Positions 29,286 through 36,310 of a stretch of 64,000 nucleotides of DNA are shown in pieces. The notes below the pieces were generated by a model. The model ran no database searches, was not told where the DNA came from, and saw nothing but the letters and a program-made list of their open reading frames with translations. The DNA comes from a virus (lineage: Duplodnaviria > Caudoviricetes), in the IMG/VR virus record IMGVR_UViG_3300010347_003561, positions 35,893 to 99,892 of that record; one strand, 5' to 3'. Each line of letters opens with the position of its first letter. Position 1 is the first letter of the stretch. The position numbers and the translations under genes were made by a program.

Positions 29286-29723
29286 ATGCCGTATTGTAAG
29301 GTTTGCGGGAGACCACTGAAAGACGAAGAGAGTATCAGGCGAGAGATAGGCCCTGTTTGCTTCGCTCAAATCAAAGCGAGTTCGGAGACGAAAGAGATCG
29401 TGCCGCTGCCTGTTCCCGGCGAGTTTGAAGGGAACATCGTGCTTACCAGAGACAAGGAAGGCATCGCGATGACAAACGTGCCGAGATTCAAGATTTTTCA
29501 CAGCCCCGACGGCTACGAATGGGGATACTCCGGCTCCGGCCCGGCCGATCTCGCGCTCAACATACTCCTCCTCTTCGTGGAAGAGAGCGAGGCCTACAGA
29601 CTGCACCAGCAATTCAAATCGCAGTTCGTCGCTTCGATGCCCGAGGAGGGCGGAATCATAGAAAACAAGGACATAAGGAACTGGCTGGCAAAACAGACTG
29701 AATTGTGGGAGGTAGAGAAATGA
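29286..29723 (+). CDS. zinc finger (DUF6011-like) fused to DUF6166-like domain
   Basis: CKVCGRPL...S...IGPVC; HSPDGYEWGYSGSGPADLA. Confidence 0.75.
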   Translation: MPYCKVCGRPLKDEESIRREIGPVCFAQIKASSETKEIVPLPVPGEFEGNIVLTRDKEGIAMTNVPRFKIFHSPDGYEWGYSGSGPADLALNILLLFVEESEAYRLHQQFKSQFVASMPEEGGIIENKDIRNWLAKQTELWEVEK

Positions 29724-30028
29724 GCATTTTCGAAAGGTTTTGCACACTTTTGCCGTCGCTAATAAAACGCGGAGTCGAAGTCACGGTTTTAACGTTCTCG
29801 GACCAGTCGAGCATAATAGTTGACATGCCGGCAGTCAAAAAGGTTTATTCATACCACTTCTCAAAAGATTTCAAACTCGAAGACGTTACGGTATGCAACA
29901 CGGAAACTCATGATTGCTACTGCATAGCTCCGCGCTCCCTGGCACCGCGTATTTACTTCACATCGAAGAGGGAGGCTGCGTCAACGACCCACGGCAAAAG
30001 CCGGGAGCTAGTAGCTCTTGTTGACTAG
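29720..30028 (+). CDS. hypothetical protein whose C-terminus is altered by the inserted element
   Basis: GGAGG RBS; reads ...SKREAA into the element and stops inside it. Confidence 0.65.
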   Translation: MSIFERFCTLLPSLIKRGVEVTVLTFSDQSSIIVDMPAVKKVYSYHFSKDFKLEDVTVCNTETHDCYCIAPRSLAPRIYFTSKREAASTTHGKSRELVALVD

Positions 30029-30200
30029 CCTAAGTGTTTCGGACACTACGTTACCGACAAATGTATAGGCACCGTAGGATGCGTTCCCAAGTCTTACGCT
30101 CTGCGGTTAGTGGTTAAACAGTTCTGATGGGTAGGAACAGTGCTGCTAACGAGAAACTGTCGGATAACATTGGCGATGGGAAACTTACTCCGAAAGGAGG
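29980..30200 (+). ncRNA. HEARO / IscB omegaRNA scaffold
   Basis: Ordered blocks GTCAAC..GTTGACTAGCCTAAG..CTACGTT..ATAGGCACC..GGATG..CCAAGTC..CTCTGCG..GTTAAACAG..CAGTG..AACATTGGCGATGGG..CCGAAAGGAG. Confidence 0.88.
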
Positions 30201-30320
30201 TAGGCTATTGGTTAGCCTACACGGAGCTGGAGAGATCCAGCTCCTTACTATTATACGAAAGGTAGGTGAAGGCGTCATTCCTCACCGGGCTGAAGCCCTG
30301 TGTCTCCTGACGCCATTTCT
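29980..30320 (+). mobile_element. non-autonomous IS200/IS605-type element (omegaRNA without iscB)
   Basis: Starts GTCAACGACCCACGGCAAAAGCCGGG; ends with GGCGTCA-TTCCTCACCGGGCTGAAGCCCTGTGTCTCC-TGACGCC hairpin; no target duplication; removal restores GAGGCTGC|ATGA stop/start overlap. Confidence 0.85.
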
Positions 30321-30659
30321 ATGAAAAACATCGTATTGCAGTACGTCGAGGTCATCGACATAATAATGGACGAAAAACCGGGAGCTGAACTGTCGAAAGA
30401 AGCCCTCTCGCAGGTACAGTCGATGTCGGCCAGGGAAAGGCGGAAGCTCTTCAGGTACCAGAAAATAGACAAGGCCATCACAATGGCCGCGAAACGTCTT
30501 TCGATGGATAGAACCACACTGGCCTGGAGTGTCGAATGCTACCTCGACTGGAACAGAGAACCGTACAGACCGCTGTCGAAAGACGAAGAAGATACGATAC
30601 TCGCCTGTCTCCTCGAAGACGAATACGAGTCGCTGGTCAAAAGCAGACGAAAAATGTAG
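30321..30659 (+). CDS. hypothetical protein (RBS displaced by the insertion)
   Basis: ATG immediately after the element end. Confidence 0.65.
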   Translation: MKNIVLQYVEVIDIIMDEKPGAELSKEALSQVQSMSARERRKLFRYQKIDKAITMAAKRLSMDRTTLAWSVECYLDWNREPYRPLSKDEEDTILACLLEDEYESLVKSRRKM

Positions 30660-34740: not shown

Positions 34741-34778
34741 GAGCCGGGCGCAGTCCCGGCTCTTTCTGGAGGCTGTGA

Positions 34779-35441
34779 ATGGAGATAAAAGTTTTGGATA
34801 AAGGCTTCGTCCGTCTTGAAGACCGTTTCGGCGATGACTTCTCCGCCGTCCAGGCCGCGAGGGTCAGCTACAACAAGGGGCTGACCACTCCCGAGCGGGA
34901 CGAGAAACTCCTCGAATACCTGATGGAGAAGGGACACACTTCCTGTTTCGAACACATGGTCATGAAACTCCACATAAAGCTGCCGATATTTGTAATGAGG
35001 CAGCTAGTGAGGCACAGGATAGCTTCGATCAACGAAAGGAGCGGCCGCTACACTCAGTTCGACCCGGAATGGTACGTCCCATCCGAAATTCGCGCGCAGG
35101 ATTCTTACGACAGGCAGAAGAGCGTTTCGTCGGAAAGGTCCGACGTATCTTTCCTGTTCGAAAAGGTCTGCAGAGATTCCTTCGAGATATACACGAAGCT
35201 TCTCGAGGCAGGAGTGGCGCGCGAGCAGGCGCGCATCGTGCTGCCAACTTCCATGTACACGGAGATCTACTGGACTATAAACATCAGAAGTCTTATGAAC
35301 TTTCTGAACCTGCGCGCCGATTCACATGCGCAGTTCGAGATGCAGCAGTACGCGAAAGCGATAGCGAGAATCTTCGAGGAAACTTACCCGCTGACCTACA
35401 AGGCCTTTCTCAAATTCGTTTACAGAGGCGATGTGCTTTGA
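34779..35441 (+). CDS. thyX: flavin-dependent thymidylate synthase
   Basis: AARVSY, GHTSCFEH, RHRIASINERSGRY, AREQARIVLP, LRADSHAQFE. Confidence 0.96.
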   Translation: MEIKVLDKGFVRLEDRFGDDFSAVQAARVSYNKGLTTPERDEKLLEYLMEKGHTSCFEHMVMKLHIKLPIFVMRQLVRHRIASINERSGRYTQFDPEWYVPSEIRAQDSYDRQKSVSSERSDVSFLFEKVCRDSFEIYTKLLEAGVAREQARIVLPTSMYTEIYWTINIRSLMNFLNLRADSHAQFEMQQYAKAIARIFEETYPLTYKAFLKFVYRGDVL

Positions 35442-36310
35442 ACCCGGCAGAGGTTTTCAACAACAGAATACTGGCACTGAAGAAGGAACTGGAAAGTCAT
35501 TTCAAAAACAATCCGTCGCAAGTGCTCAAGATCTCGTCGAAAGACGCCATGTCAATAACCGGTTGCAGGAAACCAGATTCCCTGAAGAGCATAACGGAAA
35601 AGATGGAACTGTACTTCAACTTTGTATTTTATTACAAGACTTACGACTGTTTCTACTTCGTGGCCCTTCTGACGGAGGAGGATAAACCCATCCGATCAAA
35701 AGGCTTAGACATTATCGAGTTCTTCGTGTACAGATACGTCGCAAACATGGCGCAAGAATCGAAATGCGTCGATTCACAGACTATTTCTAATTTTCTCTGC
35801 TTCAAATCGACGTCTGAATTCATGGAAGTAGCAAACTCCCTGCAGAGAAAAGGGCTTATCCGTATAGAAAGCTCAGAAACCGGTATTCAATTAAGCCCTT
35901 CGATTAAGAAACCTCAGATTGAGGCCACGGAGTTGCCAGCCAGCGAAATTGCGAGACTAAATTCGAAGATAGACAGCATCGGTCGGGCATACAACGACGC
36001 GCTCAACTTGATCATAGACGAGATCGAAATGTTGACAGGCGAGTTGGTATCGCAAGCTGACGAAATCAACGCTCTCAAAAACACCGTTAGAAAAATCGAA
36101 GAGGACGGCAAAAGCATCACAGAGAAATACTTCGAATTGAAAGCAGAGATCGACGCTTTGAAAATTCCGACCGGAACTGCGCTCGAACGCCTGTCGAAAT
36201 TAAACAGCCGGCACGAAGATACAATTATTACTGAAAGCAAAAAGCAAGGCGGTATAAAACACGACCAGAATAAATTAGAACAACTGCGCAAGATCGTCAA
36301 ACTCAACTGA
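35438..36310 (+). CDS. hypothetical protein (possible wHTH plus coiled coil)
   Basis: TTGA-coupled start; LQRKGLIRI helix-wing pattern; heptad-rich C-terminus. Confidence 0.55.
   Translation: MNPAEVFNNRILALKKELESHFKNNPSQVLKISSKDAMSITGCRKPDSLKSITEKMELYFNFVFYYKTYDCFYFVALLTEEDKPIRSKGLDIIEFFVYRYVANMAQESKCVDSQTISNFLCFKSTSEFMEVANSLQRKGLIRIESSETGIQLSPSIKKPQIEATELPASEIARLNSKIDSIGRAYNDALNLIIDEIEMLTGELVSQADEINALKNTVRKIEEDGKSITEKYFELKAEIDALKIPTGTALERLSKLNSRHEDTIITESKKQGGIKHDQNKLEQLRKIVKLN

Follow-up and report, generated by a model that had tools for sequence, protein, structure and literature searches.

What is a complete omegaRNA scaffold doing in a block of phage genes that holds no iscB, where did it come from, and could its RNA be used? 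These questions are raised by nt 29980–30320 of the window analysed here, a 64,000-nt stretch of a Caudoviricetes virus record (IMG/VR IMGVR_UViG_3300010347_003561, positions 35,893 to 99,892), for which an earlier reading of the sequence (the original prediction) had proposed a stand-alone HEARO/omegaRNA element inserted at a recognisable target site. Coordinates given without a sequence name are those of the window.

An omegaRNA element without a nuclease gene

By cmscan, HEARO (RF02033) is the sole RNA family above threshold in the 64-kb window. The match at nt 29980–30188 (plus strand) has a score of 145.7 bits (E = 1.8e-30) compared with a gathering score of 83 bits, covers positions 1–211 of the 211 in the model and is not truncated, confirming that a full scaffold starts with GTCAAC at nt 29980. 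HEARO is present in one copy in the 99,892-base virus record (about 65% complete according to CheckV), and no match to RRXRR/IscB, Y1 TnpA or TnpB was found in that record. The parent element described below has an IscB/HNH ORF directly downstream of the RF02033 region, while the window copy has none. Compared with HEARO as represented by RF02033, the window copy is alike in its full-length match and in a structure kept with covariation. It differs in having no HNH/IscB ORF: all that is left of iscB is its ribosome-binding site (GGAG, just past the scaffold), a start codon that has mutated and some 30 codons from the 3′ end. The description of this omegaRNA as stand-alone, with no iscB where one would be expected, is therefore upheld.

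The element is 341 bases long. Its boundaries (nt 29980–30320) were set to base level by a multi-copy alignment of the element family, using 26 junctions, and both the limits proposed originally and the lack of a target duplication were borne out. Deleting nt 29980–30320 in silico joins ...GGCTGC to ATGAAAAAC, and recovers the arrangement that had been anticipated: an upstream ORF ending in KREAA-stop, a GGGAGG ribosome-binding site 6 nt ahead of an ATG, and an ATGA overlap between the two genes. The stretch predicted to act as guide closes the upstream ORF at its 3′ end and used to provide the ribosome-binding region for the downstream gene. The element sits in a block of co-oriented phage genes, among them genes for an N6/N4 DNA methylase, a DUF6011/DUF6166 protein and an SLT transglycosylase, together with small ORFs that match no family. 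An ATGA overlap is also seen where the DUF6166 gene meets the next ORF (nt 29720–29723); this potential second target of the same type, 260 nt upstream, is unoccupied.

The 151-nt tail of the element has fold z-scores of −6.1 as RNA and −6.3 as DNA relative to shuffled sequences, and strong structure (z about −6 in either form) is likewise seen for the 130 nt beyond the HEARO model. The hairpins named in the original prediction are present at nt 30200–30220 and 30223–30244, and an imperfect palindrome spans nt 30271–30314. Together with a T-rich tail (to nt 30254), the second hairpin is terminator-like; it lies inside the iscB remnant, the frame of which is closed by TAG in the window copy. 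At the opposite end of the element, the reverse complement of the RE start is the transposon-encoded cleavage motif. The features are collected in Table 1.

Table 1. Features of the mini-element and its flanks, in window coordinates. Ends are named as is usual for transposons: the right end (RE) is the one with the omegaRNA, and the left end (LE) is the one next to the TAM.
Feature	Position (nt)	Strand	Basis
Upstream phage ORF, 102 aa	29720..30028	+	Last 16 codons and stop come from the element; element-free form would be 87 aa
Predicted 16-nt guide	29964..29979	+	Flank adjoining the HEARO start; 5′ flanks unrelated among copies; 16-nt length inferred
Whole omegaRNA scaffold	29980..30220	+	RF02033; 92.5% identity over 241 nt to the G014 parent omegaRNA; kept pairs
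HEARO model part of scaffold	29980–30188	+	RF02033, 145.7 bits
RE, starting GTCAAC	29980..30017	+	First 38 nt match the corresponding end of the G014 TnpB insertion sequence at 89% identity; GTCAA start in all copies
CUCC-GAAA-GGAG hairpin with iscB ribosome-binding site	30188–30199	+	Part of omegaRNA scaffold
Hairpin with former iscB start codon in its loop	30200–30220	+	TGG in the window copy, ATG in other copies
iscB 3′-end remnant (about the last 30 codons; iscB stop TGA at 30308–30310)	30221..30310	+	Alignment to C-terminal coding region of the parent; micro-ORF analysis
LE with imperfect palindrome (30271–30277 / 30308–30314)	30255..30320	+	70 of 70 bases (66 plus ATGA) equal to LE of the G014 TnpB insertion sequence; fold z-score −6
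TAM ATGA (here ATGAAA), also start codon of the downstream 112-aa gene	30321..30326	+	Invariant at 26 junctions; GstIscB TAM is TTCAT; gene of the relative begins here too
Downstream phage ORF, 112 aa	30321..30659	+	Starts directly after the element; 341 nt from its ribosome-binding site

The position of the element could have regulatory effects, in that the 112-aa gene no longer adjoins its ribosome-binding site and has a terminator-like hairpin placed ahead of it, which might alter downstream expression. The ribosome-binding site has been moved 341 nt away, the last 20 nt of the element contain no Shine-Dalgarno-like motif, and the hairpin with its T-rich tail lies in between (nt 30223–30254). 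However, such an effect would be a consequence of the insertion rather than its origin, and the T tail is weaker in the other copies of the family, making this a quite improbable account of the locus.

A family of miniature elements and its IscB parent

A 23-nt pattern taken from the 3′ hairpins was found in 13 metagenome contigs and in two contigs of a Kosmotogaceae MAG. Complete IscB-less copies are 337–345 nt long, start with GTCAA and are followed by ATGA after their 3′ ends; their 5′ flanks are unrelated. The copies found by pattern and those found by BLAST in three Kosmotogaceae-family genomes provide at least 26 distinct 3′ junctions (window nt 30321 and loci L014–L028, L034, L039, L049, L052, L058, L062–L068 and L075–L078), and ATGA is present at 26 of 26. 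The TAM proposed originally, ATGA(AA), is supported both by this invariance and by its agreement with the TTCAT TAM of GstIscB. The contexts of the copies are unrelated, and include a phage, an AT-rich genome and Kosmotogaceae genomes. In the Kosmotogaceae MAG, a 5′-truncated copy of 186 nt, with most of the omegaRNA missing, is situated directly before the start codon of an aspartokinase gene (L022:8277–8463 and L027:511–697).

A parent element with an intact nuclease gene is carried by G014, a complete genome (a single 2.97-Mb contig) of the same GTDB family, Kosmotogaceae, as the MAG. This element is 1,496 nt long, begins with GTCAAC, ends like the window copy and is then followed by ATGA. 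Its omegaRNA is 92.5% identical to window nt 29980–30220, and its IscB (419 aa; L075:539–1798, minus strand) matches RRXRR with 232.7 bits over the full profile and HNH with 38.9 bits; the best matches among solved structures are IscB (E = 2e-49). The iscB ATG of the parent lies 8 nt after GGAG, in the loop of the next hairpin. What the window copy retains of this arrangement is the RE, the whole 241-nt omegaRNA, iscB codons 1–4, about the last 30 iscB codons and the LE. Judging from these alignments, the identity and origin of the mini-element can be stated with high confidence: it derives from an IscB transposon of the Kosmotogaceae (Thermotogota) by internal deletion of iscB. Other copies in G014 include one with a truncated iscB and a 393-nt miniature (L077) that stems from a different deletion.

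G014 also contains a TnpB insertion sequence of 1,286 nt (L076:586–1871, corresponding to G014:C1:1508385–1509670), with a 400-aa TnpB encoded on the opposite strand. It uses both ends and the ATGA motif of the G014 IscB elements. Over its first 38 nt it has 89% identity to the start of the window copy, and its last 66 nt plus ATGA are the same as window nt 30255–30324 at 70 of 70 positions, in keeping with the IS200/IS605-type end that had been recognised in the 3′ part of the element. The window copy shares its omegaRNA and both ends with the IscB parent and both ends with the TnpB insertion sequence, and is therefore a non-autonomous, PATE-like miniature element of the IS200/IS605 family in which the omegaRNA has been retained.

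Y1 TnpA is encoded in G014 (canonical, 160 bits; locus L079) and in G001, the MAG with most copies. The G014 TnpA locus was considered as a bearer of the ends of the element, which was not supported, its flanks showing no visible similarity to these ends. Of the two genes that the original prediction suggested seeking with matching ends, iscB was located in the G014 parent, which shares both ends with the window copy; no tnpA with such ends was seen in G014, and the phage record gave no tnpA match.

The empty site and the distribution of the insertion

The protein encoded upstream of the element has one relative in a large protein collection, which is 88 aa long and 73% identical. An empty site was found in five Logan contigs (L003–L007) of a related phage, where the 88-aa and 112-aa genes overlap by GTGA and there is no insertion. 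The gene order in this phage is SSB, DUF6166, 88-aa gene, 112-aa gene, SLT and RadC. Relative to the window junction, the empty site has a 3-nt indel and a G for A change in the start codon; given the indel, it confirms the insertion but places the boundaries only to within a few bases.

A near-identical, element-free version of the phage was not found in the protein and contig collections, the cluster of the fused ORF containing only 102-aa forms, and the exact empty-junction pattern had no match in viral contigs. A search of IMG/VR gave no close relatives of either flanking protein or of the SLT protein, and for the DUF6166 neighbour only a relative at 37%. Two patterns from the element, when searched against viral contigs, gave no matches beyond the record from which the window is taken.

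In the assembly collection, 40 blocks index the fused 102-aa ORF, and 23 carrier contigs from JGI, NCBI, ENA and Logan assemblies were read. It seems that the insertion has become fixed in the lineage of this phage, so there is no sign that excision or homing is still going on.

One of the contigs (L008:3261–3598; JGI contig Ga0209407_1004024) joins the left flank of the phage to the right flank of another copy. It is probably an assembly chimera formed through the repeat, with the true context of the other copy being the AT-rich contig L025. Contigs L011–L013 stop inside the element. This join, and the breaks of several contigs within the element, would also be expected if the insertion were itself an artefact of assembly or a chimera of phage and bacterial reads. 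However, the same two junctions recur in independent long contigs (the 99.9-kb record, the 84-kb NCBI contig L009 and NCBI contig L010), and an artefactual origin, the chance of which is close to nil, was rejected.

Constraint on the omegaRNA and its possible use

Fifteen copies were aligned, 11 of them without any iscB sequence and four beside an intact or truncated iscB. RNAalifold shows 60 pairs kept across this set, six of them with compensatory changes, some of which separate IscB-less copies that have one common deletion junction. All of the pairs are kept in the window copy. The start-codon hairpin covaries between parent and miniature copies, and the omegaRNA score of the window copy (145.7 bits) falls within the range of copies beside an intact IscB (143–156 bits). 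These observations suggest that the omegaRNA scaffold kept mattering after the loss of iscB; the copies are related to each other, so the evidence for constraint is moderate.

The guide of an IscB is the flank 5′ of the omegaRNA scaffold. With ATGA as the TAM 3′ of the element, the guide would therefore be the 16 nt at 29964–29979, and the position of the HEARO match places it in the same 5′ flank that was named in the original prediction. A scheme for the origin and action of the element can be proposed as follows. A host Y1 TnpA would paste the single-stranded element beside TCAT/ATGA on replicating phage DNA, in this phage at an ATGA stop/start overlap, between the ribosome-binding site and the start codon of a gene. 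Read-through from the co-oriented upstream gene would then produce an omegaRNA carrying these 16 nt as its guide. In a host making a cognate IscB, this RNA would direct cleavage of the element-free site, where the guide match is adjoined by ATGAAA, while the filled site would escape cutting because GTCAAC follows the guide match there. Use of the omegaRNA by a host IscB is plausible from this analysis, and the chance that an IscB actually uses the window omegaRNA during infection is put slightly short of even.

Alternatively, the element may have landed once and become fixed as an inert passenger, a neutral or slightly costly scar whose omegaRNA plays no part in infection. This is in agreement with a phage record that has no nuclease or transposase, with the presence of the insertion in every contig seen of this phage, with the decay of the iscB start codon and frame in the window copy, and with the state of G001, which has many copies yet retains IscB only as remnants. 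It is more difficult to reconcile with an omegaRNA that reaches the scores of those beside an intact IscB and has lost none of its predicted pairs, or with the closely related, intact IscB in the candidate host lineage. Disuse is a serious possibility, rated somewhat short of even.

If a host IscB does use the RNA, the phage itself might profit, the RNA and nuclease together destroying or converting co-infecting relatives that lack the element (homing or superinfection exclusion). The geometry is suitable, in that only an empty site has ATGAAA directly after the guide match, and homing into co-infecting phages appears as a concept in a 2026 review. The only relatives found with an empty site, however, carry GTGA in place of ATGA and differ from the predicted guide at many positions, and would therefore not be targets. 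Since, in addition, a near-identical empty genome was not found and no benefit to the phage was seen, such a weapon is considered improbable.

Insertion before start codons

An ORF of 62 aa or more begins at the flanking ATG in 23 of the 26 junctions, and several of these ORFs start with N-terminal sequences characteristic of glutamyl-tRNA synthetase, MutL, aspartokinase or SbcD. Fifteen empty sites were reconstructed, and mostly consist of a Shine-Dalgarno-like motif, a spacer and ATG; a third of them (5/15) are ATGA stop/start overlaps like that of the window. Background ATGA sites open comparable ORFs in 32–40% of cases and look start-like in 12–14%. Against these rates, the binomial tails are about 4e-9 to 4e-7 when junctions are judged by their ORFs and 3e-7 when they are judged by start-like appearance.

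The iscB frame, or the micro-ORF remaining from it, ends 4–13 nt before the flanking ATG. The deletion of iscB is in frame, and leaves a micro-ORF of 32–34 codons that has the iscB ribosome-binding site and start codon and stops 4–10 nt short of the ATG of the host gene (e.g., L016, L018, L020, L025 and L028); the independently formed 393-nt miniature of G014 (L077) is likewise an in-frame deletion. Such deletions hint at a translational re-coupling of the downstream gene. Only about 10 of 19 miniature copies still have an intact micro-ORF, and it has been lost from others, including that of the window (nt 30209–30311, where the ATG has become TGG), so that support for translational coupling is weak, and the suggestion that the micro-ORF is a conserved feature was not sustained. 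Docking as a general property of phage-borne IscB elements was not supported either: in 19 loci ATGA occurs 27–31 nt past the iscB stop, and it opens an ORF of at least 60 aa in 11 of these, which is unconvincing against the background of 32–40%.

Purifying selection in compact genomes accounts for part of the docking pattern, but does not explain why the splitting of a gene from its ribosome-binding site is tolerated. It is conceivable, though unlikely, that the family is specialised to dock between a ribosome-binding site and a start codon, with a TAM that equals ATG plus A. If this were true, and if translation were re-coupled to the frame of the element, insertion would be nearly harmless and every guide would be a ribosome-binding region. 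The preference of this IscB clade for ATGA-type TAMs would then be explained as well.

Links to a candidate host lineage

Sequence matches point indirectly to a Kosmotogaceae lineage as the candidate host of the phage. The LE and ATGA of the phage copy are identical over 70 bases to the G014 insertion sequence, and genes of the phage give DNA matches of 65–78% in Kosmotogaceae genomes. A region further along the window (nt 34768–35413) has DNA matches of 64–78% in 19 of 25 Kosmotogaceae-family genomes, and looks like a host-derived or shared conserved gene.

A 22-nt intergenic sequence (nt 823–845) has an exact counterpart in the CRISPR repeat of G014, of whose 30 nt it covers the first 22 (array G014:C1:2926200–2927000, 12 repeats). 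This short match was considered as a spacer and proved to be part of a repeat; as a partial, solitary repeat it provides a clue to the host, and it may possibly serve as an RNA decoy. No CRISPR spacer matches between the Kosmotogaceae genomes and the phage were seen among the 12 candidates scored per genome.

Comparison with known elements

The best described counterpart of this family is ISGst5, the IscB element of Geobacillus stearothermophilus, and its PATE derivatives. In that system, GstIscB and TnpA both recognise TTCAT beside the LE (ATGAA when read along the omegaRNA strand); the RE forms the boundary of the omegaRNA, with the IscB guide 5′ of the scaffold; the donor joint, sealed without a scar, is cut again by the nuclease, which leads to the element being copied back; and the protein-less PATE derivatives often encode omegaRNAs, which would need a nuclease in trans (Meers 2023, bioRxiv 10.1101/2023.03.14.532601). 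The present family is likewise of the IS605 type, with an omegaRNA bounded by the RE and a TAM corresponding to TTCAT, and its miniature copies, like the ISGst5 PATEs, lack protein genes and would need both nuclease and TnpA in trans. IscB homologues of the ISGst5 clade from Anoxybacillus and Bacillus are 66–67% identical to the IscB of G014. The differences are that the host lineage of the present family is Kosmotogaceae and that the copy studied is in a phage genome. The features match the PATE-type elements of Meers 2023 and the IscB belongs to the Geobacillus-type clade, so the window element is a member of a described kind and reveals no new mechanism. No mention of a link between this element family and start codons was found in the text of Meers 2023 or in the other literature consulted.

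Phage IscB/omegaRNA cassettes carry iscB, whereas the window copy has lost it. IscBs of the G014 clade occur on at least 440 IMG/VR stretches. A human gut phage contig (L099:1531–3086; GenBank MT835856) has a HEARO match of 139 bits followed by an iscB that is split into two overlapping ORFs, covering RRXRR positions 1–126 and then 137–174 plus HNH. Phage-borne IscB elements are thus common.

Stand-alone omegaRNA loci that act in trans, present in multiple copies in a genome holding the nuclease, were reportedly described by Altae-Tran et al. in Science in 2021; a commentary on that study does not mention stand-alone RNAs. The element examined here differs from such loci in having kept both transposon ends, which makes the unit itself a mobilisable mini-transposon, and in being carried by a virus.

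Significance

Protein-less IS605 derivatives that retain an omegaRNA, and the frequent occurrence of IscB elements in phage contigs, are already known. What this locus offers is an unusually complete natural record of an orphan omegaRNA, comprising the empty site, the boundaries, the TAM, a predicted guide, the parent, a TnpB sequence and a candidate host lineage, and a record of this completeness makes a direct bench test with a G014-type IscB possible. What could be both new and of general relevance is the family-wide docking at start codons. For the phage and its presumed hosts, the locus indicates that mini-elements move from Thermotogota chromosomes into phage.
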